Shown: positions 1 through 64,000, numbered from the stretch's first letter. The stretch: DNA of 64,000 nucleotides from an uncultured Holophagales bacterium (GCA_963842525.1 CAWJGT010000034.1:288001-352000), one strand, 5' to 3'. The notes: generated from the letters alone by a model not told the origin. Made by a program: numbers and translations.

Positions 1-1
1 A

Positions 2-3000
2 AGCGCGGCCGAGCGGGTCGTCGCCTACCGCGGCGAGGAGCGCTGGATCGAGGCGTTCGAGCCAGTGCGGCTGCCGGCCGCCGATCCCGGGCGGCTACCG
101 CTGCGCGAGCGCGGTGTCTATCTGATCACCGGCGGTCTGGGAGGCGTGGGCATGACCCTGGCCCGCGAGCTGGCGCGCTCGTTCCGCGCGCGGCTGGTGC
201 TCACGGGCCGGACGTTGCGCGACGGGAGCCTCGCCGCAGCCCACGAGCTGGAGGAGTTGGGCGCGGAGGTCCTGGTGCTCGCGGCCGACGTGACCGACGA
301 GGCGGCCATGCGCGAGGTGGTCCGGCGGGCGCGCGAAAGGTTCGGCCCCATCCAGGGCGCGATCCACGCCGCCGGCGTGCCGGGTGGCGGCGTCATCCAG
401 CTCAAGACCATCGAAGCTGCCTCCCGCGTGCTGGCCCCCAAGGTGCGCGGCGCCCAGGTGCTGGCGCGCGTGCTGGCGGGCGAGCCGGTGGAGCTGCTCG
501 TGCTCCTGGCCTCGACCTTCGGGATCACAGGCGGCGTGGGCCAGGTGGATTACTGCGCCGCCAACAGCTTCCTGGACGCCTTCGCCCGGCAGGTGGCACA
601 GCGCGGCCTGCGCGCCATCTCCCTCGACTGGGCAGCCTGGCAGGAGGTGGGCATGGCGGCCGAGGCGGCTGCGCTGCGTGCTGCGGGCGAGCCGCGGCCG
701 TCCCGCGCTCTGCCGGGTACAAGCGCCGTCGAGCCGGCAGGGCCGGGCGACGGAGCGCCGTTCCACCCGCTGCTCGACCGGCGGCTGGAGAGCGCGGTCG
801 AGGCCGAGGCGGTCTACGCCACCGACTTCAGCCCGGCGCGCCACTGGGTGCTCGCCGAGCACCGCATCCTCGGCACACCGGCCCTCCCCGGCACCGCCTG
901 GCTGGAGATGGCGCGCGCCGCCTTCGCTTGCGAGACCGGCGCGCGGGAGGCCGAGCTCCAGGACGTGACCTTCGTCAGCCCTCTGCTGGTGGCGGACGGA
1001 GACCGGCGCGAGGCGCGGATCGTCCTCGAATGGGACGGCGGAGGCGAGGCGGCATTCCACGGGATCAGCCGCGCGTCCACCGGCGGCGAGTGGCAGGAGC
1101 ACGCCCACGGACGGGTCCGCTCCCTCAACAGAGAGCGTCCTTCGCCGCAGGATGCGGCGGCTCTGGCCGCGCGGTGCGTGAGGGAGGTGGCGCCCGAGGG
1201 CAGGGCCGCGGAGCCCGGCCGTACCGACCGGCTGGTCTCCTGGGGTCCGCGCTGGCAGAGCCTCCGACGCGCCAGCCTGGGCGACGGCGAGGGCCTGCTG
1301 GAGCTGGAGCTCCCGGCAGACCTCGCGGCGGACCTGGACGGCCTCGCGCTCCATCCCGCGTTGCTCGACGTAGCCACCGGCGCCGGTGGCGGATTCCTGG
1401 CCGGCGGAAACGCCCTGCCGGAGTCCTACCGCCGGCTCGCCGTGCTGGGGCCGCTCCCCGCCCGAGTGCTCGCCCATGTGCGGGTGAACGGCGTCAACCC
1501 GGCGGCCGAGACGGTCACCATGGATCTCACCCTGCTGGACGAGGAGGGGGGCGTCCGGGTCGAGATCGAGGGCTTCTCCATGAAGCGGCTGGGGAAGAAG
1601 TCGGGCGACGCCGTCGCTCCGGCGAGCGAGCGAGCAGGCTGGATCCGGCCGGACGAAGGCGTCGAGGCGTTCCGGCGCGCCCTCTCCCGGGGACGGTTCG
1701 CCCAGATCGCAATCTCCCCGACCGAGCTGGGCGCGGCCCTTGCGCCGCCGGTGCGGCAGGAGCGCGAGGAGGCCCCCGGCAGGCCTGCCGGGGAGGCGTT
1801 CCCCCGCCCGAGCCTGACCACCCCCTACGTGGCGCCGCGCGATACCGCCGAGCAGGCGATGGCGGAGCTGTGGCAGCGGGTCCTCAAGATCGACAAGATC
1901 GGAGTCCACGACAACTTCTTCGATCTGGGCGGCGATTCGGTGGTCGCCATCCAACTGGTGGCCCAGGCTACCGCAAGCGGGCTTGCCCTCACTACGCAGG
2001 AGGTCTTCGAGAAGCAGACGGTCGCAGCCCTCGCGCGGCTGGCCATTCCTTACGATCCGGGTGCGGCGGTGGTCGCGGAGCCCGCTGAGCCGGCTCCTGC
2101 CGGCGGGAATTTCTCCGTAGCGGGCCTGTCGCAGAGCAGCCTGGAGCGGCTGCTCGCCAGGCTCGGGGACGCGGCTGCGAATGTCGAGGATCTGTATCGG
2201 CTATCCCCGATCCAGGAGGGGATGCTGTTCCATGCCCTGCACGGCGGGGAGGAGGCGCCGTATTTCGAGCAGCTCGTCCTCACCTACGATCGAGACCTCG
2301 ACCTCGACCGGCTCGAGCGCGCTTGGCGCCAGGCCGTCGAACGCCATCCGGTGCTGCGCACCTCGTTCGTCTGGGAGGACGTGGAGACGCCCGTGCAGAT
2401 CGTGCATCGGCGGGTCGAGCTCCCCTTTGGGCGCCAGGACTGGCAGATCCTCGCGCCGCCCGAGCGCGACGAGCGCCTGCGGCGCTTCCTCGCGGAGGAC
2501 CGCTCCCTGGGCTTCGCGCTCGACCGCGCGCCGCTTCTGCGCCTGAACGCGATCTGGTGGAGCGACGCGAGCTGGCGCCTCGCCTGGAGCTACCACCACC
2601 TGCTCCTCGACGGCTGGTCGGTGGGTCTGCTGCTGCGCGAGGTGGCGGCCATCTACAATGCCGGGGGCCAAGCCGCGGCCGCGGCGCTGGAACCCCGGCG
2701 GCCGTTCCGCGACTACATCACCTGGCTCCGGCAGCAGGACCTCTCGGCGGCCGAGGCCTGGTGGCAGCGGACCTTCGAAGGATTCTTCGCGCCCACCGCC
2801 CTGGGGATCGACCGCACGCCGGGCCGCCCTGTCCTCCCAGGCGACGTCCACGCCGAGGTCGCGGCCGTGCTGCCGGCGGCGCTGACCGCCAGCCTGGAAG
2901 ATTTCGCGCGGCGGCACCGGCTCACCCTGCACACGGTGATCGAGGGGGCCTGGGCACTGGCGCTCGCCCGCTACGGCGACACCGAGGACGTGGTCTTCGG

Positions 3001-6000
3001 CAGCACCCTGTCGGGGCGGCCGGCCGCTCTGCCGGGCTCCGAGTCGATGATCGGCTGCTTCATCAACACCTTGCCGGTGCGGGCACGAACCGCGCTCGAA
3101 CAGAAGCTGCTCCCCTGGCTGCAGAACCTGCAGGCCTGCCAGGTGGAGCTCCGCCGCTTCGAGCACAGCCCCCTCGTCGAGGTGCGCCGGTGGAGCGGGC
3201 TGCCCGGCGACCGTCCTCTGTTCGAGACGATCCTGGTCTTCGAGAGCCTCTTCGGCCCCGGTCTCCGCTCGAGCCATGCCGGCGGCCGCAAGGGCCGGCA
3301 GCTCCACCAACGCACCAACTTCCCCCTGACCCTGGTGGTGTGGCCCGGGCGAGAGATCGCGCTCGAAGCCCGCTTCTACACCGGCCGCTTCGCGGCGGAG
3401 GATGTGTCCCGCCTGCTCGGGTATGTCACGGAGCTCCTCGCGGCTATCGTCACCGAGCCCGACGGCCTCCACCCCGGCGACCGGCGCCTAGCAGACCTGC
3501 CCCTCCTGCTTCCTCACGAGCACGCGCAGATCCTGCGCGAGTGGAACGACACGGCCGAGGAGATCCCCGCCGCCCCCGTCCACCACCTCTTCGCGGCCCG
3601 GGCGACGTGTGTCCCGGAGGCCCCGGCCGTCGCCGACGCCGGCCGTAGCCTCACCTGCGGCGAGCTCGACGCGCGCGCCAACCGCCTAGCGCACCACCTG
3701 ATCCGGCTGGGGGTCGGACCGGAGGTCCTGGTGGGGGTCTCCCTGGAGCGCTCGGCGGACATGGTCGTGGCCCTCCTCGGTATCCTCAAGGCCGGCGGAG
3801 CCTACCTGCCGCTCGATCCTGCTTACCCGGTGGACCGTTTGCGCCTCATGCTGGAGGATTCGGGGACCCGCTTCCTTCTCGCCGCGGACGGGACAGAAAC
3901 GCTCGCCGCGCCGGGGCTCTGCGTCGTCCACCTGGACGATCCGGCGATCGCGGGCGAGCCCGCGCGTCCGCCGCGCCCGCCAGACGCCGAGGTCGAAGCG
4001 CCCCATCTCGCCTACGTCCTCTACACCTCGGGCTCGACCGGCCGGCCGAAAGGGGTGCAGGTCACCCACGGCGCGCTCGCCAACTTCCTGGCCGCCATGC
4101 GCAGGCGTCCCGGCCTGGAGCCGGGAGACGTCCTCCTCACCACGACCTCGCTCTCCTTCGACATCGCCGCGCTGGAGATCTATCTCCCCCTGCTCGCCGG
4201 CGCACGGATCGTCGTCGCCCGGCGCGAGGAAGTCTATGACGGCCGCCGCCTGCGGGAGCTGCTCGCCGAGCACGAGGTCACGGTGATGCAGGCGACCCCT
4301 TCGACCTGGCGGATGCTGGTCGATTCGGGCTGGCGAGGGGGCTCCCGGTTCAGGGTCCTGTGCGGCGGCGAGGCCCTGCCCGAGGACCTCGCCGCAGCGC
4401 TGCGAGCGCGTGCCGCCGAGGTCTGGAACCTCTATGGCCCCACCGAGACTACGGTCTGGTCTGCGGTCGAGCTGCTGCCGCCGGACCGGCCGGTCTCGAT
4501 CGGCCGGCCGATCGCCAACACCGGGATCTACGTCCTCGGTTCCGGGGCTCTCCCGGTCCCCGCCGGAGCACCCGGAGAGCTGCTCATCGGCGGCGCCGGT
4601 GTGGCGCGCGGCTATCTGGGGCGTCCGGACCTGACCGCCGAGCGCTTCGTCCCCGACCCGTTCGCCGGCGCGGCAGGAGTCGGCGGACGCCTGTACCGGA
4701 CCGGCGACCTGGCCCGGCACCGGGCGGATGGACGGCTGGAGCTTCTCGGCCGCATCGACCAGCAGGTGAAGGTCCGCGGCTTCCGCATCGAGTTGGGGGA
4801 GATCGAGGCCGCTCTCTCTCTCCACTCCACGGTGGCGCAGGCCGCTGTGGTGGCGCGCGACGACTGGGGCGACCGCCGGCTGGTCGCCTATGTGACGCCC
4901 TCCGGCGTCCGCGAGCCCGTCCCGGCGGAGCTGCGCGAATTCCTGCGTGCGCGCCTGCCCGAATACATGCAACCTGCGGCCTTCGTCGTCCTGCCGGCCC
5001 TGCCGCTCACCCCCAACCTGAAGGTGGATCGCAGGGCGCTGCCCGCGCCCGCGAACACGTCCGTGATGGCGGACGCGTTCGTCGCGCCTCGCAGCCCCCT
5101 TGAAGAGGTGCTGGCGGAAATCTGGGCCGAAGTGCTGCGCCTTGAGAAGGTGGGGATCGACGACGACTTCTTCGCCTTGGGCGGCCACTCGCTGCTCGCC
5201 TTCCAGGTGGTCTCTCGCATCCAGAGGAAGCTCGGCCTGGCGCCGCCGGTGCACTGGATCTTCGAGCGGCCGACCGTGCGCGGCCTCGCCGAGCGGACCG
5301 GGACGGCGCTCTCAGAGCTGCCGGCCCTCCGTCCGACCGGCCTCCGGGAGGGCGAGCCCGTTCCCGCCTCCTTCGCCCAGGAGGGCCTGTGGCTGCTCGA
5401 CCGGCTCGCCCCCGGCTCGGCGGCTTACAACCTTCCGCTGTCCCTGCGGCTGGGCGGTCGACTGGACGCCGCGGCCCTGACGGCGAGCCTGCACGAGATC
5501 GTGCGCCGCCATGCGGTGCTGCGGACCCGCTTTGCCGCCGTCGACGACGTGCCGCACCAGATCGTCGGGCCGGTCCCCGACCTCCTCCTGCCGGTCATCG
5601 ACCTCTCCGGTCTTCCGGAGCGGGTCCGGGACGCCGAAGCCCGGCGGCTGGCTGTCGTGGCAGTGTTGCACCCGTTCGATTTGACGCGCGGGCCGCTACT
5701 GCGGGCGGTGCTCCTGCGGCTGGGAGCCCAGGACCATGCAGCGCTCTTGGCCGTGCACCACATCGCCTCGGACGGCTGGTCCACGGGCGTCCTCCTCCGC
5801 GAGGTCGCCCTTCTCTACGAGGCCTTCTCGCAGGGCCGGCCTTCACCGCTCACCGAGCTGCCCGTCCAGTACGCCGACTATGCTGCATGGCAGCGGCAGT
5901 GGCTGCGGGGCGAGGTGCTCTCGGCGCACCTCGACTACTGGCGCCGGCAGCTCGCAGGGGCTCCCGCCGTGCTCCCGCTGCGCACCGATCGTCCGCGGCC

Positions 6001-6820
6001 CGCGGTCCGGACGTCCCGCGGCGGACGGATCGCGGTCGAGCTGCCGGCGGAGCTCCGCGACCGCCTGGTCGAGCTCGGCCGCACAGAGCACTGCACGCTG
6101 TTCATGACCCTGCTCGCCGGTTATAGTGCCCTGCTCCACCAGTGGGCGGAAGGTACGGAACGCGTCGTCGTCGGCTCGCCGATCAGTTACCGGAATTGGC
6201 CGGAGGTCGAGGACCTCATCGGGTTTTTCGCGAACGTCCTGGTCTACCACACCCGTCTGGAAGGCGATCCGACGTTCCGGGAGCTTCTCTCCCACGTCCG
6301 CCGGATGGTGCTGGACGGCTTGACGCATCAACACGTCTCCTTCGAGCGACTGGTTGAAGAGCTGCGGCCTGAGCGCAGCCTGAGCCACAATCCCCTGTTC
6401 CAGGTGATGTTCGCTTTCACGGCGGCCGGAGCGGTGACCGCTCCGCCTCCCGACAGGGCCGGCCTCGTCGTCGATCCCTTCGGGTTCGAGGGGACGACGG
6501 CACAGTTCGATCTCGAGCTGAGCCTGACCGACGCGCCCCAGGGCGTGATCGGCACTCTGACTTTCAGCAGGGATCTCTTCGAAAAGGAGACCGTTGCCTG
6601 GAGGTGGGACCAGCTCCGCTTCCTGTTGGAAGAGGTCGCGCGGGAGCCCGACCTGCATTTGAGTGAGCTGCGGTCGCGGCTCACTGAGGTCGAGCGCCGC
6701 CTCTGGGCGCGCAGGCAGGAGGAGCTCGAGGAGGCGTCCTCCCGGAGCTTCAAAGACCGTCGGCGCAGGATGGTGATGGCGGTCGCTGAAGTCATCGGCG
6801 GGGCCGTGCAAGAGGGTTGA
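2..6820 (+). CDS. Hybrid PKS/NRPS, 5'-truncated: KR(with inserted DH)-ACP-C(DCL-like)-A(Gly)-PCP-C
   Basis: The frame is open from position 2 (SAAERVVAYRGEERW...). KR: GVYLITGGLGGVG and QVDYCAAN. DH: EHRILGTPALPG and HPALLD. Carrier GGDS at ~1928. C: HHLLLDGWS. A code DILQLGLVWK (Gly type). PCP GGHS. Terminal C: HHIASDGWS. Stop TGA at 6818-6820. Confidence 0.95.
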   Translation, partial: SAAERVVAYRGEERWIEAFEPVRLPAADPGRLPLRERGVYLITGGLGGVGMTLARELARSFRARLVLTGRTLRDGSLAAAHELEELGAEVLVLAADVTDEAAMREVVRRARERFGPIQGAIHAAGVPGGGVIQLKTIEAASRVLAPKVRGAQVLARVLAGEPVELLVLLASTFGITGGVGQVDYCAANSFLDAFARQVAQRGLRAISLDWAAWQEVGMAAEAAALRAAGEPRPSRALPGTSAVEPAGPGDGAPFHPLLDRRLESAVEAEAVYATDFSPARHWVLAEHRILGTPALPGTAWLEMARAAFACETGAREAELQDVTFVSPLLVADGDRREARIVLEWDGGGEAAFHGISRASTGGEWQEHAHGRVRSLNRERPSPQDAAALAARCVREVAPEGRAAEPGRTDRLVSWGPRWQSLRRASLGDGEGLLELELPADLAADLDGLALHPALLDVATGAGGGFLAGGNALPESYRRLAVLGPLPARVLAHVRVNGVNPAAETVTMDLTLLDEEGGVRVEIEGFSMKRLGKKSGDAVAPASERAGWIRPDEGVEAFRRALSRGRFAQIAISPTELGAALAPPVRQEREEAPGRPAGEAFPRPSLTTPYVAPRDTAEQAMAELWQRVLKIDKIGVHDNFFDLGGDSVVAIQLVAQATASGLALTTQEVFEKQTVAALARLAIPYDPGAAVVAEPAEPAPAGGNFSVAGLSQSSLERLLARLGDAAANVEDLYRLSPIQEGMLFHALHGGEEAPYFEQLVLTYDRDLDLDRLERAWRQAVERHPVLRTSFVWEDVETPVQIVHRRVELPFGRQDWQILAPPERDERLRRFLAEDRSLGFALDRAPLLRLNAIWWSDASWRLAWSYHHLLLDGWSVGLLLREVAAIYNAGGQAAAAALEPRRPFRDYITWLRQQDLSAAEAWWQRTFEGFFAPTALGIDRTPGRPVLPGDVHAEVAAVLPAALTASLEDFARRHRLTLHTVIEGAWALALARYGDTEDVVFGSTLSGRPAALPGSESMIGCFINTLPVRARTALEQKLLPWLQNLQACQVELRRFEHSPLVEVRRWSGLPGDRPLFETILVFESLFGPGLRSSHAGGRKGRQLHQRTNFPLTLVVWPGREIALEARFYTGRFAAEDVSRLLGYVTELLAAIVTEPDGLHPGDRRLADLPLLLPHEHAQILREWNDTAEEIPAAPVHHLFAARATCVPEAPAVADAGRSLTCGELDARANRLAHHLIRLGVGPEVLVGVSLERSADMVVALLGILKAGGAYLPLDPAYPVDRLRLMLEDSGTRFLLAADGTETLAAPGLCVVHLDDPAIAGEPARPPRPPDAEVEAPHLAYVLYTSGSTGRPKGVQVTHGALANFLAAMRRRPGLEPGDVLLTTTSLSFDIAALEIYLPLLAGARIVVARREEVYDGRRLRELLAEHEVTVMQATPSTWRMLVDSGWRGGSRFRVLCGGEALPEDLAAALRARAAEVWNLYGPTETTVWSAVELLPPDRPVSIGRPIANTGIYVLGSGALPVPAGAPGELLIGGAGVARGYLGRPDLTAERFVPDPFAGAAGVGGRLYRTGDLARHRADGRLELLGRIDQQVKVRGFRIELGEIEAALSLHSTVAQAAVVARDDWGDRRLVAYVTPSGVREPVPAELREFLRARLPEYMQPAAFVVLPALPLTPNLKVDRRALPAPANTSVMADAFVAPRSPLEEVLAEIWAEVLRLEKVGIDDDFFALGGHSLLAFQVVSRIQRKLGLAPPVHWIFERPTVRGLAERTGTALSELPALRPTGLREGEPVPASFAQEGLWLLDRLAPGSAAYNLPLSLRLGGRLDAAALTASLHEIVRRHAVLRTRFAAVDDVPHQIVGPVPDLLLPVIDLSGLPERVRDAEARRLAVVAVLHPFDLTRGPLLRAVLLRLGAQDHAALLAVHHIASDGWSTGVLLREVALLYEAFSQGRPSPLTELPVQYADYAAWQRQWLRGEVLSAHLDYWRRQLAGAPAVLPLRTDRPRPAVRTSRGGRIAVELPAELRDRLVELGRTEHCTLFMTLLAGYSALLHQWAEGTERVVVGSPISYRNWPEVEDLIGFFANVLVYHTRLEGDPTFRELLSHVRRMVLDGLTHQHVSFERLVEELRPERSLSHNPLFQVMFAFTAAGAVTAPPPDRAGLVVDPFGFEGTTAQFDLELSLTDAPQGVIGTLTFSRDLFEKETVAWRWDQLRFLLEEVAREPDLHLSELRSRLTEVERRLWARRQEELEEASSRSFKDRRRRMVMAVAEVIGGAVQEG

Positions 6821-6822
6821 GC

Positions 6823-9800
6823 ATGCAGCAGAGCGTCATCCAGGGCTTTCGGCTTTCCCCGCAGCAGGACCGCCTGTGGTCTCTGCAAGGCGATGGGGGA
6901 GAGCTGCCGTACCGCGCGACCTGTGTGCTCCGGATCACGGGCCGCCTCGACGTGCAGGCGCTGCAAGCGGCCCTGGGACGCGTCGTCGAACGGCACGAGA
7001 TCCTGCGCACCACGTTCCGGCAGGCCCCCGGGATGGAGGAGCCCCTCCAGGTCATCGGCGAGAGCGCGGCCGTGCGCATCGAGCGCTGCGAGCTGCGCGG
7101 CGGTTCCTCCGCAGCGCGGGAGGCGTCGGTCGACGCACTCTTCCTGGAGGCGAGCCGTCTCCCCTTGGACATCGAGAATGGGGAGAACGGCGTCCTGCTG
7201 CGGGCGCGGCTGGGCTGCCTGGCCCCCGACCGGCACCTGCTGCTGCTCGTTCTGCCCGCCCTCTGTGCGGACGCCACAAGCCTGGAGAATCTCGCCGCGG
7301 ACCTGGCGCGCTGTTACGCCGCGCTCTGCGGCGGTCCTGCTCCCGGTGAGACGGCTCAGTACGCCGACATCGCGGACTGGATGAACGGGATGCTCGCAAC
7401 GCATGAGGAGGTGGCGCGGAGGTTCTGGGGGAGCCGCGACGTCTTCGCCAGGCTCGACACCCGGCTACCTCTTGAGCGCGAACCGGCCGGCACTGCGAGC
7501 TTTACACCCCGGTCGGTCCCGGTAGAGGTCGCATCCGCGACTGTCGTCGGCGTCGCCCCGGAGCTCGGCGCCACCGAGGAGGCCGTCCTGCTCACCGCCT
7601 GGCAGATCCTCCTGCGGCGCCTGACCGCCTGGCCGGAGACCGTCGTCGGAGTCGCCTTCGCCGGTCGCAAGCATGCGGAGCTGCGCCATGCGCTGGGACT
7701 CTTTACGCGCCATCTGCCCGCTCCCTGCGCATGGGGGGAGGAGGACTGCTTCGCTGCGGCGGTCCGCGCGACCGCAGAGGCCCTCGCCGAGCTGTCCGGC
7801 TGGCAGGAGTCTTTCACCTGGCGGCGCCTGGCGGCGGACGGCGGAGCTCCTTTCTTCCCCTTCGCCTTTGAATATACCGAGGGCGCCGCCGAGCACCGCC
7901 ACGGCGACACGATCTTCTCGATCCTGCGGTCGCAAGCCCAGACCGACCGCTTCCGGGTGAAGCTCGCCGGCTCGCGGCGCGGCGGCACTCTGACTCTCGA
8001 GCTGCAGTACGACGAGAGCACTTTCCGCCGTGAGGACGCCGAGCGCCTTGCCGGCTGGTACGGGGCCTTGCTGGAGAGCGCGGCGAAGTGCCCCGGGGCC
8101 GCGACAGGCGATCTCGGAATTCTCACCGCGGAGGAGCGGCGCGAGGCGCTGGTCGACCTCAACCGGACGGAGGTGGAGCACCCCGGAGCCGGCAGGACGC
8201 TGGCGCGGCTCTTCGCGGAGCAGGCTCGCCGCAGCCCGGACGCGGTCGCGGCCTCGTTCCGCGAGCAGCGGATCACCTATGGGGAGCTGAAAACGCGGGC
8301 CGAGCGGCTGGCCCGCCACCTGCGAGGCCTGGGGGTGGCGCCAGAGGTGCGGGTCGCGCTATGCGTCGAGCGGTCGCTGGACATGGTCCTGGGCATCCTG
8401 GGCATCCTCGAGGCCGGCGGGGCCTACGTGCCCATCGATCCGGCCTATCCGGAGGAGCGGCGGGCCCTGATGCTGGAGGACGCACGCACCCCCGTGCTGC
8501 TCACCCAGGAGCGGCTGGCCCCCGGCCTGGAGGGGCTGCGGGCCGGCGCCCGCATGGTCCGCCTGGACGCGGACTGGCCGGAGATTGCGGCCCACAACCC
8601 CCGCGACGGCCGGGAGGAGGATCTCCCGGAGAATCTGCCGGAACATCTGGCCTACGTCATCTACACGTCCGGCTCTACGGGCCGGCCCAAGGGGGTCATG
8701 GTCTCGCACCGGGCCATCGCGAACCGGCTCCTGTGGAAGCTGCGGGTCTTCCCCCTGGAGCCGGGGGACGTGGTCCTGCAGAAGACGCCCTACAGCTTCG
8801 ACGCGTCGATCTGGGAGATCTTCGTCCCCCTCTTCGCGGGCGCGCGCCTGGCCGTGGCCGAGCCCGGCGGGCACCAGGACCCCGCCTATCTCCTGCGCGC
8901 CCTCGCCGAGGAGCAGGTCACTGCGCTCCAACTCGTTCCCTCCATGCTGCCGGTCCTCCTCGACCAGTCAGGAGCGGAAGAGGCCGGCCGCAGCCTTCGC
9001 GGCCTGTTCTGCGGCGGCGAGGCCCTCGCCGCCGAGGCGGTGGACCGCGCCTTCGCCCTGCTGGCGGGCGTTGTCGTGCGCAACCTCTACGGTCCCACGG
9101 AAGCCTCCATCGACGTCGCCTCCCAGCCCTGCGAGCCGGGCAGGTGGGACGGGATCGTGCCCATCGGCCGGCCCATCGACAACATCCGGCTCTACGTGCT
9201 CGACCCCCGAGGCGTGGCGGTGCCGCCGGGGCTGACCGGAGAGCTGCACATCGGCGGAGTGAACCTGGCCCGAGGCTATCTGGGCCGGCCTGGCCTCACG
9301 GCCGAGCTCTTCGTGCCGGATGCCTGGAGCGGCCTCCCTGGCGAGCGGCTCTACCGCACCGGCGACCTGGTCCGCCTCTCGGGCGCCGGGCTGCTCGAAT
9401 TCCTCGGCCGGGCCGACGGCCAGGTCAAGCTCCGCGGCTTCCGCATCGAGCTGGGCGAGATCGAGGCCGCCCTGCTGCGGCATCCGGCGGTGCAGGAGGC
9501 GGCCGTCCTGGTGCGGGAGGACGCTCCCGGAGCCGCACGCCTGGTGGCGTACGTGGCGCCGGGCGAGACCGCCGCCGGGGAGCTGCGCGCCTTCCTCACC
9601 GCGCGCCTGCCGGAGCACATGGTGCCTCCCGTCGTGGTGACCCTGCCGGCCCTGCCGCGCTTGCCCAACGGCAAGCTGGACCGCCGCGCCCTGCCGGCGC
9701 CGGACCCCGCCGGCCTCGCGGGCTCCCACGGCCCGCGCACCCCGGCCGAAGAGCTGATGGCGACGCTGTGGCGGGACCTTCTGAAGGTCGAGCGGGTCGG

Positions 9801-12800
9801 GGCCGGCGACGACTTCTTCGCCCTGGGCGGCCACTCTCTGCTGGCCACTCGGCTCGTTTCCCGCATCCGCCAGGTCTTCGCAGTCGAGCTGTCAATGCGG
9901 GATGTGTTCCAGGCACCCACCCTCGCCGGCCTCGTCGCGGAGGTATCCGCCGCGCGCGGCATCGCCTCCGGCCGCTGGGTGCCGCCCCTCGTGCCGGTGG
10001 CTCGCATGCCTGGCACCGGGCTGCCGCTCTCCTTCGCCCAGCAGCGGCTCTGGTTCCTGCACCAGCTCGACCCGGAGAGCCCGTCCTACCACCTGCCCAT
10101 GGCCGTGCGGTTCCTCGGTCCCCTGGACCTGCCGGCGTTCGCCGCTGCGGTGCGCGAGGTCGTGCGGCGGCACGAGTCCCTGCGCACCCGCTTCCCGGCC
10201 GAGGATGGGAAGCCGGTCCAGGTGATCGAGCCGACGCCGGCCTCGCCGCTGGCCTGCATCGACCTGTCGGCGCTCTCGGAGGCACGGCGCGAGGCCGAGG
10301 CGCGGCGGATCACGGCAGCCGAGGCGGAGCGCCCCTTCGACCTGGCCGCGGGACCCCTGATCCGCCCGGCCGTGCTGCGGCTGGACGAGCGGAGCCACGT
10401 CCTGCTCGCCTGTCTGCACCACATCGTCTCCGACGGCTGGTCCCTCGGTGTCCTGGTGCGCGAGGTGGCGGCGCTCTACCAGGCGTTTCGCACGGGGACG
10501 GCGCCGGACCTTCCGGAGCTGCCTGTCCAGTACGCCGACTTCGCAGTCTGGCAGCGGAGCTGGCTGTCCGGCGAGGTGCTGGAGGCGGAGCTCGCCTGGT
10601 GGCGGGAGCGGCTGGCCGGAGCGCCGCCGCGTCTCGATCTCCCCACCGACCGCCCGCGGGGCCTCTCCGGCGGCTCCGGACGGCAGCCGCTCCGGCTCTC
10701 CGCCGGCCTCACGCAGCGCCTCGGAGACCGCGCGGGAGCCACGCCGTTCATGGTCCTGATGGCCGGCTTCCAGGCCCTGCTCGGCCGCTGGTGCAACCAG
10801 GACGACGTGCTCGCCGGAGCGCCGATCGCCAATCGCACGCGGGCGGAGATCGAGGGTCTGATCGGCTTCTTCGTCAATACCCTGGTGCTGCGCGCCGACC
10901 TCTCCGACGGGCCGTCGTTCCGCCGCCACCTGGAGCGTGTGCGCGAGGCGACGCTCGCCGCCGCGGACCACCAGGACGTTCCCTTCGAGCAGGTCGTCGA
11001 GGCCGTGCGGCCGGGGCGGGTACGTGGTGAGAACCCGCTCGTCCAGGCGCTGCTCGTGCTGCAGAACGCGCCCGTCGGGCCCCTGGACCTTCCGGACCTG
11101 GCGCTGCGTCCTGAGCCGGTCTCGTTCAGCGCGGCCAAACTGGATCTGACCCTGGAGCTGGCGGAGACTCCGGAGGGGATCGGCGGCGTCTGGCAGTACC
11201 GGGCCGACCTCTTCGACGCGGTCACCGTGGCGCGCCTGTCGCGGCACCTCGCCAACCTGCTGGCGGCGGCGGTGGAGACTCCTGAGCGGAGTGTGTCCGA
11301 GCTGCCGTTGCTCGACGAGGCCGAGGCGACCCAGCTCCTGGTGGAGTGGAACGACACGGCGGCAGGGTTGCCGGAGGGTCTCGTCCACGAAGTCGTCGCA
11401 CAGCGGGCGGCGGAGCGTCCGGACGCTGCGGCGCTTGTCTCTTCCGGCGGGAGCTGGACGTACAGCGAGCTGGACCGGCGGGCCAACGGCCTCGCCCGGC
11501 GCCTGCGCGGTCTCGGTATTGGAGATATTGGGCCGGAGCGGGTGGTGGCGATCTGCGCCGAGCGCTCGCCCGAGATGGTGCTCGCCCTGCTCGCCGTGCT
11601 CAAGGCGGGAGGCGCCTGGCTGCCTCTGGACCCCGCCTATCCGGCGGAACGCCTGCGCTTCATGTGGAAGGATGCCGGCCGGCCCCTCCTCCTGGCACCC
11701 GAGGGCCTGCTGGAGGGCCTGCCTGCCGAGGCACGCGAGCGCTGCCTCCCGTTGACCGTAGAAGAGGAAGACGTGGACGCGCCGAGCGCGCTGGAGACGG
11801 GCGTCGCTCCTGATCACTTGGCCTATGTGATCTATACGTCGGGCTCCACCGGACGGCCCAAGGGCACGCTCCTCACTCACGGCGGGCTGCGCAATACAAT
11901 CGCGGCCCTCATGCAGGCTTACCGGATCGACCGCGGCTCGCGCATGCTCCAGTTCTCGTCGTTCTCGTTCGACGCCTCCGTGGCCGAGATCTTCGGCGCC
12001 CTGGCCGCCGGGGCCGAGCTGCACCTGGCCGCGCCGCACGAGCTACTGCCCGGGCCCGACTTCGTCCGGCTGCTCCGCGAGCGGCGGATCACTGTCGCCA
12101 CCCTGCCGCCCTCCGCGCTGCTCGCCTCCCCTCCTGAGGAGCTGCCGGAGTTGGCGACCCTGGTGGTGGCGGGGGAGACCTGTCCGCCGGAGCTGGCGGT
12201 GACCTGGGGGCGCGGCAGGCATTTCGTGGATGCCTACGGTCCGACCGAGGCCACGATCGCGGCCAGCGCGGGAGCGGGCGCAGCGATCGGCCGGCCGCTC
12301 GCGAACGTCCGCATCCATCTCCTGGGAGCCGGCCTCCAGCCGGTGCCCATCGGTGCCGCTGGCGAGCTCTGGGTGGCGGGCGCCGGCCTAGCGCGGGGCT
12401 ATCTCGGCCGGCCCGATCTGACCGCGGACCGCTTCCGGCCCGATCCGTTCGCGACCTCTCCGGGCGAACGGCTCTACCGCACCGGCGACCTGGCGCGGCG
12501 GCGGCCGGACGGCGAGCTGGGCTTCCTGGGCCGCATCGACCACCAGGTCAAGGTGCGGGGATTCCGCGTCGAGCTTGGGGAGATCGAGGCGGCGCTGGTC
12601 CGCCATCCGGCCGTACACGCCGCGGCCGTGGCGGCGCACGCGGATCGGATCGCCGCATACGTGGTCCCGGCGGAAGGGTCGGAGGCGAGCGTCTCCGAGC
12701 TGCGCGGCTTCCTGCGGCGCGAGCTGCCGGACTACATGATCCCCGCGGCCTGGGTGACGCTGCCGGCTCTGCCGCTGACACCGGCAGGGAAGGTGGACCG

Positions 12801-13203
12801 CCGCGCCCTGCCCGCGCCGGGCACGGAGCGGCCCGACCTGGCCGCCGGCTACACGGCGCCGAGCGGCCCCGTCGAAGAGGTGCTGGCGGACCTCTGGTCT
12901 CGTCTCCTCGGGCTCGAACAGGTGGGTGCCCACGACGACTTCTTCGAGCTCGGCGGCCACTCGCTGCTGGCGACCCAGATGGTCTCGCGCATCCGCAAGG
13001 TGTTCAAGGTGGAGCTGCCGCTGCGCGACTTCTTCGGCCGGGCTACCGTGGCTTCCCTGGCCCGATGGCTCCAGGAGCACGAGGCGAAGCCCGGACAGGC
13101 CATGGCGATCGCGCACGCGGTGCTGAGGATCGCGGCCATGCCGGCCGCCAGCCTCCAGAGCGAGCTGGAGTCCCGGCGGGCGGAACGGAGGCTGGCGCCG
13201 TGA
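6823..13203 (+). CDS. NRPS: interface-like pseudo-C-A(Gln)-PCP-C-A(aromatic, Tyr/Phe-like?)-PCP
   Basis: AGAGGG at 6811-6816 precedes ATG 6823 (alternative start TTG 6817). The N-terminal C-fold has GFRLSPQQ and PALCADATS in place of HHxxxDG. A1 code DAWQFGLIDK (Gln). A2 code DAATVAAIAK (closest to Tyr/Phe codes, uncertain). Both PCPs have GGHS. Confidence 0.95.
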   Translation: MQQSVIQGFRLSPQQDRLWSLQGDGGELPYRATCVLRITGRLDVQALQAALGRVVERHEILRTTFRQAPGMEEPLQVIGESAAVRIERCELRGGSSAAREASVDALFLEASRLPLDIENGENGVLLRARLGCLAPDRHLLLLVLPALCADATSLENLAADLARCYAALCGGPAPGETAQYADIADWMNGMLATHEEVARRFWGSRDVFARLDTRLPLEREPAGTASFTPRSVPVEVASATVVGVAPELGATEEAVLLTAWQILLRRLTAWPETVVGVAFAGRKHAELRHALGLFTRHLPAPCAWGEEDCFAAAVRATAEALAELSGWQESFTWRRLAADGGAPFFPFAFEYTEGAAEHRHGDTIFSILRSQAQTDRFRVKLAGSRRGGTLTLELQYDESTFRREDAERLAGWYGALLESAAKCPGAATGDLGILTAEERREALVDLNRTEVEHPGAGRTLARLFAEQARRSPDAVAASFREQRITYGELKTRAERLARHLRGLGVAPEVRVALCVERSLDMVLGILGILEAGGAYVPIDPAYPEERRALMLEDARTPVLLTQERLAPGLEGLRAGARMVRLDADWPEIAAHNPRDGREEDLPENLPEHLAYVIYTSGSTGRPKGVMVSHRAIANRLLWKLRVFPLEPGDVVLQKTPYSFDASIWEIFVPLFAGARLAVAEPGGHQDPAYLLRALAEEQVTALQLVPSMLPVLLDQSGAEEAGRSLRGLFCGGEALAAEAVDRAFALLAGVVVRNLYGPTEASIDVASQPCEPGRWDGIVPIGRPIDNIRLYVLDPRGVAVPPGLTGELHIGGVNLARGYLGRPGLTAELFVPDAWSGLPGERLYRTGDLVRLSGAGLLEFLGRADGQVKLRGFRIELGEIEAALLRHPAVQEAAVLVREDAPGAARLVAYVAPGETAAGELRAFLTARLPEHMVPPVVVTLPALPRLPNGKLDRRALPAPDPAGLAGSHGPRTPAEELMATLWRDLLKVERVGAGDDFFALGGHSLLATRLVSRIRQVFAVELSMRDVFQAPTLAGLVAEVSAARGIASGRWVPPLVPVARMPGTGLPLSFAQQRLWFLHQLDPESPSYHLPMAVRFLGPLDLPAFAAAVREVVRRHESLRTRFPAEDGKPVQVIEPTPASPLACIDLSALSEARREAEARRITAAEAERPFDLAAGPLIRPAVLRLDERSHVLLACLHHIVSDGWSLGVLVREVAALYQAFRTGTAPDLPELPVQYADFAVWQRSWLSGEVLEAELAWWRERLAGAPPRLDLPTDRPRGLSGGSGRQPLRLSAGLTQRLGDRAGATPFMVLMAGFQALLGRWCNQDDVLAGAPIANRTRAEIEGLIGFFVNTLVLRADLSDGPSFRRHLERVREATLAAADHQDVPFEQVVEAVRPGRVRGENPLVQALLVLQNAPVGPLDLPDLALRPEPVSFSAAKLDLTLELAETPEGIGGVWQYRADLFDAVTVARLSRHLANLLAAAVETPERSVSELPLLDEAEATQLLVEWNDTAAGLPEGLVHEVVAQRAAERPDAAALVSSGGSWTYSELDRRANGLARRLRGLGIGDIGPERVVAICAERSPEMVLALLAVLKAGGAWLPLDPAYPAERLRFMWKDAGRPLLLAPEGLLEGLPAEARERCLPLTVEEEDVDAPSALETGVAPDHLAYVIYTSGSTGRPKGTLLTHGGLRNTIAALMQAYRIDRGSRMLQFSSFSFDASVAEIFGALAAGAELHLAAPHELLPGPDFVRLLRERRITVATLPPSALLASPPEELPELATLVVAGETCPPELAVTWGRGRHFVDAYGPTEATIAASAGAGAAIGRPLANVRIHLLGAGLQPVPIGAAGELWVAGAGLARGYLGRPDLTADRFRPDPFATSPGERLYRTGDLARRRPDGELGFLGRIDHQVKVRGFRVELGEIEAALVRHPAVHAAAVAAHADRIAAYVVPAEGSEASVSELRGFLRRELPDYMIPAAWVTLPALPLTPAGKVDRRALPAPGTERPDLAAGYTAPSGPVEEVLADLWSRLLGLEQVGAHDDFFELGGHSLLATQMVSRIRKVFKVELPLRDFFGRATVASLARWLQEHEAKPGQAMAIAHAVLRIAAMPAASLQSELESRRAERRLAP

Positions 13204-24555: not shown

Positions 24556-24557
24556 GT

Positions 24558-60393
<35,836 letters not shown>

Positions 60394-60397
<4 letters not shown>

Positions 60398-63300
60398 CCA
60401 GCACCCTCGAGCTCTCCGACAAGCGCAAGCTCCTGCTGGAGAAGCTGCTCCGCAAGCACGGAGTGGAGACCGGCACCCGCCCGGCCGTCGGGCGCCGCGC
60501 CGGCTCCGGCCCCGCTCCGCTCTCCTTCGGCCAGCAGCGCCTCTGGTTCCTCCACCAGCTCCAGCCCGCGAACACGGCCTACAACATCGCCGAGGCCGTG
60601 CGCCTCCTGCGCGGGGGTCTGGACGCCGCGGCCCTGGCGGGCGCCTTGACCGAGACGGCGCGCCGCCACGAGGTGCTGCGCACGGTGTACGCCATGATCG
60701 ACGGCGAGCCCCGGCAGATCGTCCAACCGCCGGCCCCCGTCCCGCTGCCCCGCGTCCTTCTGGCCGGGCTGCCGGCGCCTGACCGCGAGGCCGAGGCCGC
60801 GCGGATCGCCGCGACCCTGATCGCGGAGCCTTTCGACCTCGTCCGCGGCCCCGTGCTCCGCGCCGTCCTGGTGGAGCTCGACCGGGGCGACCACGTTCTC
60901 GTCCTCCTCCTCCATCACATCGCGACCGACGGCTGGTCCATGGGCCTCCTGGTGCGCGAGCTGACGCTGCTCTACGAAGCGCTCGGCACCGGCGCCCCCT
61001 CGCCGTTCCCAGAGCTGCCGCTGCAGTACTCCGACTTCGCCACCTGGCAGCGCGGCTGGCTCCAGGGCGAGACTCTGGAAGGCCAGCTCCGCTACTGGCG
61101 GGAGCGGCTCGCCGGCGCCCCCACCCGGCTCGCCCTCCCCGTCGACCGCCCCTGGCCGGCCGTCCAGACCTCGCGCGGCGCCCGCACACCGATCGCTGTC
61201 GGCGACAAGACGGCCGCGGCCCTCCGCGAGCTCGCCCGCGAGCACGGAGCCACGCTGTTCATGGCCCTGGCGGGCGGCCTGGCCGCGCTCCTCGCGCGCC
61301 TCACGGGCGAGGACGACCTCCTCCTCGGCACCCCCACCTCCGGCCGCGTCCGTCCGGAGCTCGAGGGGTTGATCGGCTTCTTCATCAACACCCTGGTGCT
61401 GCGCGCCGATCTCACGGGCAACCCCGGCGTCCCGGCGCTGCTCTCGCGGGTCCGGGAGACGGTGCTCGGCGCCGACGCCCACCAGGACCTCCCCTTCGAA
61501 CGGCTGATCGACGCCCTGGAGCTCCCCCGCGACCTGTCGCGCAACCCCCTGTTCCAGGCGATGCTCGCCTTCCAGAACCTCCCCCCGGTCGAGGAGCGGC
61601 CGGGCCGGCTCGCCGCGCTCCCCTTCCCCATCGCCGCGCACCAGGCCCAGTTCGAGCTGTACGTCTCGCTGGCCGACTCGCCGGGCGGTCTCTTCGGCCT
61701 CCTGGAGTACCGCACCGAGCTGTTCGACGCCAGCACCGCCCAACGCCTGGCCCGGTGGTTCGAGACCCTCCTGGCCGGGATGGCCCACGCCCCTTGGAGC
61801 TCCGTCGCGGAGCTTCCCCTGCTCTCCCCCACCGAGGAGCGGCAGCTCGTCCACGAGTGGAACGACACCGCCGTGGCGTATGCCTGGCCTCCAGAGCGCG
61901 GCGGCCTCCACCAACTGATCGCGGCGCAGGCGGCGCGCACGCCCGGCGCGGTCGCCGCGAGCTTCGAGGGGGAGAGCCTGACCTACGCCGAGCTGGACTC
62001 CCGGGCCAACCGCCTGGCCCGCCACCTGCGCTCCCTGGGCTGCGGACCGGAGACAAGGGTGGCCGTGGCCATGGAGCGCTCGCTGGAGCTGCTGGTCGCC
62101 CTCCTGGGCACCCTGAAGAGCGCCGCCGCCTATGTCCCTCTGGACCCCGACTACCCGCGGGAGCGCCTCGCCTTCATGCTGGACGACGCCCGGCCGGCCG
62201 TGCTCCTCACCCAGGAGCGGCTGCGGCCGGTCCTGCCGGAGACCCCGGAGACCACCGTCGCCGTCCTCTCCCTCCACCCCGACGGCCGCGAGTCCGCAGA
62301 CCACGACGGCTCCCCTCTGGATGAGGCGGTGGACGATCTCCAGCTCGCCTACGTCATCTACACCTCGGGCTCGACCGGCCGCCCCAAGGGCGCCATGGTG
62401 CAGCACGCCGCCATCCGCAACCGGCTGCTGTGGATGCAGGAGGCCTACGCCCTGGACCCGGCCGACACGGTGCTGCAGAAGACCCCCTACAGCTTCGACG
62501 TGTCGGTGTGGGAATTCTTCTGGCCGCTGCTCGCCGGCGCCCGCGTGGCCTTCGCCCGGCCGGGCGAGCACCGCGACCCCGCCGCCCTGGCGGCCCGCAT
62601 CGCCGCGGAAGGGACGACCGTGCTCCACTTCGTCCCCTCCATGCTCCAGGTGTTCCTGGAGGAGCCGGGGATCGACGGCTGCCGCTCGCTCCGCCGGGTG
62701 GTGGCGAGCGGCGAGGCGCTGACGCCGGGGCTGGTGCGCCGCTTCCACGAGCGCCTGCCGGGCGTGGCTCTGGAGAACCTCTACGGGCCCACCGAGGCCG
62801 CGGTCGACGTGACCTTCCACCCTTGCCCGCCGGGTCCGCCGGGAGATGCCGACCGCGCCGTGCCGATCGGGCGCCCCATCGCCAACACCCGCATCCACCT
62901 CGTGGACCGGGGCGGCCGCCCGGTGCCCCTGGGGGTCGCCGGCGAGCTGTGGATCGGCGGCGTCAACGTCGGCCGCGGCTACTTCGGCCGGCCGGAGCTG
63001 CACGGCCGAGAGGTTCGTCCCCGATCCCTTCGGAGCCCCGCAGGGATCTCGCGCCTACCGTACCGGGGACCTCGCCCGCCGCCGGCCGGACGGTATAGTC
63101 GAGTACCTGGGGCGGATCGATCACCAGGTCAAGCTGCGGGGCGTGCGCATCGAGCTGGGCGAGATCGAGAGCGCCCTGCTGCGCCACCCCGCAGTCCGCG
63201 AGGCCGCCGTGCTGCTGCGCGAGGACCGGGGCGTGCGCCGTCTGGTGGGTTACGTGGCCCCCCCGACGGCAGCCACCGCCGACGAGATCCGCCGTTTCCT

Positions 63301-64000
63301 CCTCGAGCGCCTCCCAGAGGCCATGGTCCCCGCCCGCTTCGTGGGGCTGGACACCCTTCCGCTGTCCCCCAGCGGCAAGCTCGACCGCCGGGCCCTCCCC
63401 GCCCCGGACACCGCGGTGGCCCTGGCCGAGACCGAATACGTACCGCCGGCCTCCCCCCTGGAAGAGATTCTGTCCGAGGTCTGGGGCGAGATCCTCGGCG
63501 TCTCCCGGGTGGGAGCCCGCGACAACTTCTTCGCCCTGGGCGGCGACTCGATCCTCAGCCTGCGGATGGTGGGCCGCCTGCGCGAGCGGGGGTTCGAGCT
63601 GAAGCTCCAGCAGGTGTTCCAGCACCAGACCGTGCGCGACCTGGCCCGCGAGATCGCGACCTCCCAAGGCGAAGCCGCCCCGGCCCGGACCGGCCCCTTC
63701 GAGCTGGTCTCCGCCGAGGACCGCGACGGTCTCCCGGCCGGGCTGGAGGACGCCTATCCCCTGGCCCGGCTCCAGGCCGGCATGCTCTTCCACAGCTCGT
63801 TCGACCCCGAGGCCTCGGTGTACCACGACATCTTCAGCGAACGGCTGCGCGGCCCCTTCGACGAGGCGGCGCTCCGCGGGTCCATCGCGCGGGTCATGGC
63901 ACGCCATCCGGTGCTGCGCACCTCCTTCGCAATCCACGGCTTCGGGGAGCCTCTGCAGCTCGTCCACCGCGAACCCCCCGTGCCCCTGGTGGTGGAGGAC
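60394..64000 (+). CDS. NRPS, 3'-truncated and absent from the ORF track (frameshift at ~63001): C-A(Ser)-PCP-C(modAA)...
   Basis: ATG 60394 overlaps the upstream stop (ATGA) and follows GAGGAAGGA. Manual translation gives [19 protein letters not shown]...[12 protein letters not shown]...[10 protein letters not shown] code DVWHVSLVDK and PCP GGDSIL, then [17 protein letters not shown]...YHDIFS...RHPVLRTSF...EPLQLVH. Confidence 0.92.

Follow-up and report, generated by a model that had tools for sequence, protein, structure and literature searches.

The DNA analyzed here (hereafter the window) is a stretch of 64,000 nucleotides from the genome of an uncultured Holophagales bacterium (GCA_963842525.1, CAWJGT010000034.1:288001-352000; G000:C34:288001-352000), and it carries the central part of a giant assembly line built of nonribosomal peptide synthetase (NRPS) and polyketide synthase (PKS) modules. 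The host genome consists of 9.95 Mb on 34 contigs, and the contig that holds the window (C34) is 793 kb long. By best-match taxonomy, the source is an uncultured soil acidobacterium whose best relatives are metagenome-assembled genomes (MAGs) of Thermoanaerobaculia. The G+C content of the window is 72%, and long open frames take up nearly all of its plus strand; for the cluster region G+C is about 72.5%, compared to 67.8% genome-wide. Five genes lie wholly or partly within the window:

2..6820, + strand: gene g3, 3' part, with KR-DH-T of module 15, C-A-T of module 16 and a terminal C; open frame -5026..6820, start near -3300
6823..13203, + strand: gene g4, C17s-A17-T17-C18-A18-T18; ATG 2 nt past the g3 stop, AAGAGGG upstream
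13200..24555, + strand: gene g5, modules 19, 20 and 21; GTG start overlaps the g4 stop (GTGA)
24558..60397, + strand: gene g6, modules 22-32, about 35.8 kb with 11 modules, one frame if seven breaks are read through
60394..64000, + strand: gene g7, 5' part, module 33 and the beginning of C34s; ATG overlapping the g6 stop (ATGA)

The four gene junctions in the window are thus 2-nt gaps (6820/6823 and 24555/24558) or stop-start overlaps (GTGA at 13200/13203 and ATGA at 60394/60397), with a purine-rich stretch upstream at three of them. The unity of g6 is indicated by its T-to-C and T-to-KS linkers, which measure only 55-130 nt, and by frames that overlap at each break.

Twelve plus-strand open reading frame (ORF) translations spanning the window were scanned against Pfam, and all 12 match Condensation, AMP-binding, PP-binding, ketoacyl-synt, Acyl_transf_1, KR or PKS-DH, with E values down to 1e-199. 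A domain map was made by tblastn against the contig, with one window copy of each domain type as the query. It places 19 carrier (T), 15 adenylation (A), 17 condensation-type (C; the last truncated by the window end), three ketosynthase (KS), three acyltransferase (AT), two ketoreductase (KR) and one dehydratase (DH) domains in the window. These make up 15 complete NRPS modules, three complete PKS modules (KS at 19954, 40742 and 50292) plus the last three domains of a fourth, KR-DH-T (113-2038). The GGxS serine is kept in all 19 T domains. A C-A-T module directly follows every PKS module, and an A-T pair precedes each complete one. No epimerase, methyltransferase or thioesterase family is found among the Pfam matches of the 12 window ORFs, and the DxxxxD motif of heterocyclization (Cy) domains is absent from all C-type domains in the window. 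A first-pass annotation of the window, made from the sequence alone, had described at least 19 modules in which NRPS and PKS alternate, with an NRPS module after each PKS module, an amino acid directly before each of the three complete ones, and no E, Cy, MT or TE domain; the domain map, the Pfam scans, the lack of DxxxxD and the lack of PF00975 bear out this description in full.

Its module set, correct for the window, covers only about half of the line, and the predicted product is about twice as long and fatty-acyl capped. When the domain map is extended in both directions, the line proves to be about 122 kb long, all on one strand; in window coordinates it begins at about -50.7 kb and ends at about +71.4 kb, so that the window is its central 64 kb. 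The locus reads as a hybrid NRPS / cis-AT type I PKS line of eight translationally coupled genes, with a fatty acyl-AMP ligase (FAAL)-acyl carrier protein (ACP) loading unit, 30 NRPS and five PKS modules. Complete C-A-T sets make up 28 of the 30 NRPS modules; the other two are module 5, which has no C domain, and the terminal module, whose A domain (A35) is dead. Over the whole line, 34 of the 35 T domains that could be read intact show the carrier serine, and the T03 motif straddles a frame break. We think it likely that these genes form one hybrid line of 30 NRPS and five single-malonate PKS modules that starts from the FAAL, that its frame breaks are errors, and that it makes a long lipopeptide-polyketide. 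The line is very probably functional.

Modules, ketide units and both ends of the line

The PKS domains in the window are:

113..643, + strand: KR of PKS module 15; PF08659, E=5e-50; GGxGxxG and YxxxN present; precedes DH
764..1603, + strand: DH of PKS module 15; PKS_DH_N and PS-DH matches; HxxxGxxxxP and HPALLD present; follows KR
1847..2038, + strand: carrier T15, GGDSV
19954..24375, + strand: PKS module 21, KS-AT-KR-T; AT21 with GYSLG and HAFH
40742..43861, + strand: PKS module 27, KS-AT-T; AT27 with GHSVG and HAFH; without a reductive domain
50292..53850, + strand: PKS module 30, KS-AT-261-aa spacer-T; AT frame-broken, with GYSLG and QAFH; spacer matches only PF21394 (E=1.4e-10)

The KS residues Cys-His-His are intact in all five KS domains of the line (three of three in the window), and all five PKS modules have an AT of their own. 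AT15 and AT27 read GHSxG, and AT10, AT21 and AT30 read GYSLG (-19434..-18427, 21526-22539 and 51861-52875). HAFH is present in four of the five ATs, with QAFH in AT30. In module 15 the KR precedes the DH (KS-AT-KR-DH-T). The same order is found in seven of eight mapped loci of Thermoanaerobaculia MAGs, whose modules are about 45% identical (comparison loci L010-L016, L025 and L014).

The state of each ketide unit follows from this domain content. Module 21 is predicted to convert a Thr-type unit into a beta-hydroxy-gamma-amino (statine-like) unit. Modules 27 and 30 lack a reductive domain (module 30 has no catalytic KR), and would therefore give beta-keto units. Just upstream of the KS of module 15 lies module 14, Cy-A(Ox)-T, with a DxxxxD motif and a nitroreductase-type insert in its A domain. 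Because the upstream module is of this type, the enoyl unit of module 15 would extend a thiazole rather than a plain amino acid. The three oxidation states that the first-pass annotation proposed for the gamma-amino units agree with the domains (KR and DH in module 15, KR in 21, neither in 27 and 30), except that module 15 would not extend a plain amino acid.

The NRPS modules of the window are listed below with the 10-residue pocket codes of their A domains. The codes were read from our own alignment with motif anchors, and the substrate names come from comparison with Stachelhaus codes.

2201..5290, + strand: module 16 (C16s-A16-T16); A16 code DILQLGLVWK, presumably Gly-like; C16s is DCL-like and takes a polyketide donor
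8212..9933, + strand: A17 and T17; A17 code DAWQFGLIDK, presumably Gln-like
10021..13086, + strand: module 18 (LCL-type C, A18, T18); A18 code DAATVAAIAK, presumably aromatic-like
13335..16425, + strand: module 19; C19 frame-broken; A19 code DFWSVGMVHK, presumably Thr-like; T19 GGDSI
17935..19911, + strand: A20 and T20; A20 code DFWNIGMIHK, presumably Thr-like
24654..27782, + strand: module 22; C22 with two frame breaks; A22 code DVWHASLVDK, presumably Ser-like; T22 GGDSI
29319..31046, + strand: A23 and T23; A23 code DLYNFSLVWK, presumably Cys-like
31107..34206, + strand: module 24; A24 code DVWHVSLVDK, presumably Ser-like
34285..37422, + strand: module 25; A25 code DIWEITADDK, presumably 2,4-diaminobutyrate-like
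37516..40687, + strand: module 26; A26 code DVWHISLVDK, presumably Ser-like
43934..47066, + strand: module 28; A28 code DVQFRADV?K, Pro-like family; A domain frame-broken
47133..50237, + strand: module 29; A29 code DLFNNALTYK, presumably Ala-like
53929..57057, + strand: module 31; A31 code DAHITTHVAK, Pro-family motifs
57136..60268, + strand: module 32; A32 pocket region frame-broken, code unreliable
within 60394..64000, + strand: module 33 (in g7); A33 code DVWHVSLVD-, presumably Ser-like; T33 GGDSI

Cys, a diamino acid and two proline analogues had been predicted as building blocks, and pocket codes resembling those for each of them are present. The N-terminal part of A20 contains a 79-aa insertion (18298-18534) without a Pfam match.

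Retrieval of the flanks, which had been proposed as a search for starter, thioesterase and tailoring genes, supplied a FAAL-ACP starter, a sulfotransferase, Cy and Ox domains, and no thioesterase. The loading unit at the 5' end consists of the FAAL (NCBIfam subfamily, E=4e-131) and a PP-binding match at residues 591-656; the identity of the loading carrier is based on this Pfam match. An in-line sulfotransferase domain (PF13469, E=3e-31) lies at about -11610..-10525 (L005:18390-19475), between the T of the Ser-type module 12 and the next C, where it might add a sulfate ester or create a leaving group for an elimination. Module 5 (about -36100..-34050; L004:13822-14248 onward) has no C domain: a frame-broken T04 is followed by about 46 codons and then by A05, which is an 89% DNA duplicate of A06 over 1.5 kb, with an identical pocket code. 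Upstream of the loading module is a gene for a PhyH-family dioxygenase (L003:17085-19169) with a 430-aa N-terminal region that has no Pfam match; NCBIfam gave this protein only an ectoine-hydroxylase-like match, below the cut-off.

The last gene of the line is a single ORF of 1484 aa with Condensation (Cy), AMP-binding, PP-binding and MFS_1 domains (L007:2966-7420; window +66966..+71420). Neither the P-loop nor the A10 lysine is present in its A domain. PF00975 thioesterases match 14 times in the genome and not once in the cluster (C34:237431-360800), and profile scans of the cluster flanks gave no match to a release reductase. None of the usual release domains (a TE, a reductase or a C domain at the end) was thus found for the line, and its terminal A is dead. 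Two more clusters of the genome end in the same Cy-A-T-MFS arrangement (C19:295606-300159 and C3:1506192-1503043). The closest relatives of the terminal gene are 80-81% identical (P0122 and P0123), and they belong with it to a group of metagenomic proteins, about 40 in number, with the architecture Condensation(Cy)-(A)-T-MFS (P0122-P0161), all without PF00975. A TE-free end fused to a transporter recurs in the lineage, and we know of no mechanistic description of such termination. In Micromonospora and other actinomycetes, proteins that NCBI names 'non-ribosomal peptide synthetase/MFS transporter' likewise join an NRPS module to a C-terminal MFS transporter; those fusions carry PF00975 between T and MFS, whereas the present protein has no thioesterase and its A is dead. 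In the metagenomic proteins P0162-P0186 the same MFS subfamily is fused to M28/M20 peptidase or penicillin-amidase domains, which hints at export coupled to processing.

The terminal gene is followed by a DUF3326 gene (L007:7461-8792), a family otherwise from cyanobacteria and plants. A 58% identical paralogue (C9:1521366-1522652) stands beside another NRPS-PKS cluster. A search of the ESM Atlas for DUF3326 returned only other DUF3326 clusters without a function, and NCBIfam returned no family. About 3 kb past the cluster, a TIR-domain / AAA-ATPase gene (L007:10548-12194) and a TPR gene look like a defence-type pair outside the assembly line.

Dehydrating-type condensation domains and the g3|g4 junction

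Most C domains of the line are of the LCL type (the best structural match of C18 is Txo2, 355 bits), and among the domains of this type only C17s lacks HHxxxD. Five C domains of the window require separate description:

5360..6670, + strand: C17a, intact LCL-type C, HHIASDG; last domain of g3, not followed by A or T
6853..8211, + strand: C17s, degenerate C, PALCAD in place of HHxxxD; Pfam Condensation E=3e-47
16555..17934, + strand: C20s, dehydrating-type C (modAA/DHC), motif NHAIFDG; PDB matches McyA 322 and AmbE 197 bits
27909..29318, + strand: C23s, divergent C, motif HHAILDG; McyA 165 and AmbE 116 bits vs PvdL 129
63758..64000 in the window (first 81 codons), on to about 65122, + strand: C34s, the clearest dehydrating-type C; McyA 394, AmbE-C2 224, others at most 164 bits

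Against DCL-type C domains C20s scores 117-148 bits, and against the LCL-type domains listed at most 95. A quick maximum-likelihood tree of the C domains unites C20s, C34s and C23s in one clade (SH-aLRT 97 and 98), with C23s on a long branch as the sister of C20s and C34s (98); the two Cy domains form a separate clade. Each of the three dehydrating-type domains stands directly behind an A domain with a presumed Thr- or Ser-like code (A19, A22 and A33) and a T domain that reads GGDSI. Judged by their sequences, C20s, C23s and C34s are closer to characterized dehydrating C domains (DHCs) than to LCL or DCL domains, and they are in the donor-side position. C23s, the weakest of the three, is probably of the dehydrating type; a role as Cy, considered because it precedes a Cys-like A domain, was rejected since it has HHxxxDG. 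Three modAA-type C domains and at least three dehydro residues had been proposed for the window. The McyA and AmbE matches and the common clade agree with the first proposal (C34s lying only partly in the window), and the position of each domain after a Ser- or Thr-type A domain is consistent with the second.

According to a review, DHCs act on a donor Ser or Thr before condensation (PMC10880069). C20s and C34s, and less clearly C23s, match McyA (PDB 8jbr) and AmbE-C2 (PDB 7r9x) best, and each has the donor-side position that the review describes for AlbB (AlbB-C2/C3) and AmbE (PMC10880069). They differ in that C20s has NHxxxDG, that C23s is very divergent, and that three such domains occur in one line. 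Two further domains were considered as modAA-type and rejected: C16s, after PKS module 15, is DCL-like (best PDB match McyB, 354 bits, vs McyA 114), and C17s is a degenerate LCL-type domain.

The junction of g3 and g4 is the sole C|C junction of the line, every other being T|C or T|KS. Gene g3 ends in the intact C17a and g4 opens with C17s, whose PDB matches are weak (best 98 bits) and which sits on a long branch at the base of the LCL group. In the simplest reading, C17a would condense the chain onto the amino acid of T17 in trans, and C17s would be a vestigial docking partner. A co-fold of C17a and C17s scored 0.56 (best of three controls 0.00), with runs agreeing in at least 84% of contacts and a partner pLDDT of at least 80. 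In calibration, 51 of 78 solved complexes passed the mark, as did two of 108 mismatched pairs; at scores of 0.60 or below, only five of the 78 solved complexes passed it, and so did all four passing mismatches (of 180). The pass may also reflect likeness, because both chains resemble solved C domains, and the co-fold lends the pairing weak support.

The same junction is the chief argument for reading the locus as two or three shorter lines, in which C17a would free the chain of modules 1-16, a second peptide would start from g4, and a further break might fall at module 5. Terminal C domains that release chains onto amines exist; in addition, C17s has no catalytic histidines and A05 follows T04 without a C domain. 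However, g3 and g4 belong to one operon, with just 2 nt between the stop of the first and the start of the second; the cluster showed neither another loading domain nor a release domain; and the amino acid on T17 is the simplest acceptor for C17a. The co-fold gives the pairing of C17a with C17s weak support. We regard such a division of the locus as unlikely.

Frame breaks and module order

The frameshifts that the first-pass annotation reported are present in the sequence. Nine frame switches in the window do not fall at gene boundaries; eight lie inside domains and one lies in the A33-T33 linker:

14362..14492, + strand: frame break in C19; adjacent tblastn segments in frames 3 and 1
25127..25139, + strand: frame break in C22, at a C5 run
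25471..25488, + strand: second, compensating frame break in C22 (tblastn)
32213..32236, + strand: frame break in C24 (tblastn)
38238..38249, + strand: frame break in C26 (tblastn)
46204..46233, + strand: frame break in A28 (tblastn)
52204..52292, + strand: frame break in AT30 (Pfam scan, tblastn)
59208..59291, + strand: frame break(s) in A32 (Pfam scan, tblastn, A-domain translation)
62985..63449, + strand: frame break A33/T33; candidate position, the C7 run at 63258

Contigs of four soil or rhizosphere metagenome runs were aligned to 24001-44000, which holds four of the nine breaks. Indels of frame-restoring sign occur in these contigs at three of the four: an extra C behind 25134 (X1, depth 3.4/3.4; X2, 6.1/24.8; X4, 12.3/18.8), a missing base at 32217 (X2, 15.3/15.3) and a missing base at 38240 (X2, 13.2/13.2; X4, 0/8.1). 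Because they are 90-99% alike, the repairing contigs come from relatives and not from the source strain. Across the genome, 83 A, C, KS or AT domains on nine contigs are split, only eight of them in this cluster, and no NRPS/PKS region of the genome is free of such breaks. One stop occurs among 31 A-domain translations, at a frame break. The nine breaks look like consensus errors of the assembly rather than gene decay, a reading that follows from the frame-restoring indels in relatives, the spread of breaks over the genome and the intact catalytic motifs.

If the frameshifts were genuine, the locus would be a decaying pseudogene array without a product. Nine non-junction switches in 64 kb, breaks that do not all lie in homopolymers, and the agreement of X4 with the window at one site speak for decay, but the intact motifs, the lack of stops in domains beyond the breaks, the frame-restoring indels at three of four sites and the 83 breaks genome-wide make it very improbable.

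A chimeric assembly or collapsed repeats had been named as something that would undermine the module order. Many short-read joints skip 3-16 kb, and the C-less module 5 adjoins the 89% identical A-domain duplicate of 1.5 kb. The joints were rejected as evidence of misassembly since their sides measure 22-35 nt, below 36 nt; such joints are typical of repeats or of other organisms. Furthermore, A05/A06, outside the window, is the only repeat pair of at least 150 bp and at least 85% identity in the 122 kb, independent contigs of 580-1370 nt bridge T23/C24, T24/C25, T25/C26 and T26/KS27 in the given order, and the cluster lies on a contig of 793 kb. The module order is thus upheld, and a chimera is extremely improbable.

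Predicted product, relatives and genomic setting

If the line is collinear, a fatty acyl starter would be extended by amino acids, and at five places a KS-AT(-KR(-DH))-ACP unit would add C2 after an amino-acid-derived unit, to be left as beta-keto (modules 10, 27 and 30), beta-hydroxy (module 21) or enoyl (module 15). The enoyl unit would be built on the thiazole formed by Cy-A(Ox)-T of module 14. C20s, C23s and C34s would dehydrate the preceding Thr, Ser and Ser, respectively, and then condense the dehydro residues. Release and export would probably be coupled at the membrane by the Cy / dead-A / T-MFS end, without a thioesterase. That all 35 modules act collinearly, to give a lipopeptide of about 30 amino acids and five ketides (a thiazole-acrylate, a statine-like unit and three beta-keto gamma-amino units) with three dehydro residues and TE-free, MFS-coupled release, is a tentative and rather doubtful proposal. 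Such a 35-module product would, to our knowledge, be the longest hybrid nonribosomal peptide-polyketide. The link to protease inhibitors that the first-pass annotation drew from statine and vinylogous units is speculative.

Several observations weigh against a single working line with this output. The substrate assignments are the weakest part of the analysis, and a literature search for six of the Stachelhaus codes gave no match. AT21 and AT30 have GYSLG instead of GHSxG, and C20s reads NH in place of HH. The C-less module 5 breaks the canonical order, so strict collinearity of 35 modules is not assured; the order is also non-canonical where the intact C of g3 meets the degenerate C of g4. 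At the end of the line the A domain is dead, and the thioesterases of the genome all lie outside the cluster. As for the frame breaks, the read-derived check covers four of nine; the fourth checked site (25471..25488) is not among the 12 indels listed, the insertion at 25134 is carried by just part of the depth in X2, X4 does not have the deletion at 38240, and the contigs that repair the breaks are 90-99% alike.

The individual elements have counterparts in characterized systems. In epothilone biosynthesis, a Cy-A-Ox-T thiazole module passes the chain to a PKS at the EpoB/EpoC junction. Module 14 is alike in its DxxxxD motif, its presumably Cys-like code, its nitroreductase insert and the KS-AT-KR-DH-T that follows; here, in contrast, the junction lies mid-line among 35 modules and the DH comes after the KR. 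Single-malonate extension of aminoacyl thioesters gives the gamma-amino units of didemnin, thalassospiramide and syringolin/glidobactin. The present line resembles systems of this type in having one KS-AT(-KR(-DH))-T between NRPS modules and HAFH in four of five ATs, and differs in its five insertions, its three oxidation states and its three ATs with GYSLG. Several features of the line are unusual, but individually precedented.

No orthologue was found in public proteins, in species genomes or among 40 relatives (five from its own genus, a further 19 from the family and another 16 from the order), and full-length matches are 41-50% identical. When KR-DH-T-C16s was used as the query against 185,579 species genomes, the best loci were 44-52% identical (52% for a partial match, L014, and at most 47% where most of the query was covered). 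These loci are almost all from Thermoanaerobaculia or Acidobacteriota MAGs, and the flanking module orders differ in the eight that were mapped. Among the 40 relatives, identity reaches at best 54% over the KR-DH part, 48% at full length and 41% within the genus, compared to 63% for a paralogue in the same genome. Against 5.8 billion proteins, g4 is at most 50% identical to any match covering most of the query (62% for one local match that spans 58% of the query), and the matches carry generic names only. The literature on Thermoanaerobaculia biosynthetic gene clusters (BGCs) and acidobacterial lipopeptides yielded nothing usable, and no isolated acidobacterial product of this type was found in the open literature, paywalled papers being unsearched. 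A link to trigintamicin was rejected, as the name denotes 30 degrees C and not 30 residues. The product had not been recognized at first sight, and these searches likewise gave no close match. We give next to no credence to the locus being the cluster of an already described compound, for which no supporting point was found, given full-length identities of at most 50%, generic names, differing flanking module orders and the lack of a product in the open literature.

NRPS and NRPS-PKS clusters of more than 100 kb have been reported for Ca. Angelobacter, and UBA5704 is a further BGC-rich acidobacterial lineage (PMC9723581; PMC12818350). The orphan clusters described there are alike in phylum, in size (>100 kb), in their hybrid NRPS-PKS nature, in the BGC-rich genome and in their orphan products. 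The best matches of the present genome, in contrast, are Thermoanaerobaculia MAGs. The line is unusually large, yet its class is unsurprising, with about 25 further NRPS/PKS regions in the genome and clusters of more than 100 kb already reported for Acidobacteria (PMC9723581). Giant orphan lines of this sort make uncultured soil Acidobacteria a rich and still untapped reservoir of natural products, and the present one is delimited almost completely. Since its start, end, junctions and error sites are mapped, the cluster can be polished and then cloned or used for synthesis by prediction. It also gathers several oddities of assembly-line enzymology: C domains of the dehydrating type, three in number, a sulfotransferase set in line, a KR that precedes the DH, a C|C junction between genes, a module lacking C, and a TE-free end fused to a transporter.

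Over the whole genome, domain matches number about 290 for A, 284 for C and 44 for KS, in about 26 regions, several of them longer than 90 kb. NRPS/PKS-like DNA takes up about 1.4 of the 9.95 Mb, and one region of 235 kb has 59 A domains. Examples of such regions elsewhere in the genome are C3:391216-626171, C3:1418771-1598680 and C9:1319018-1416670.

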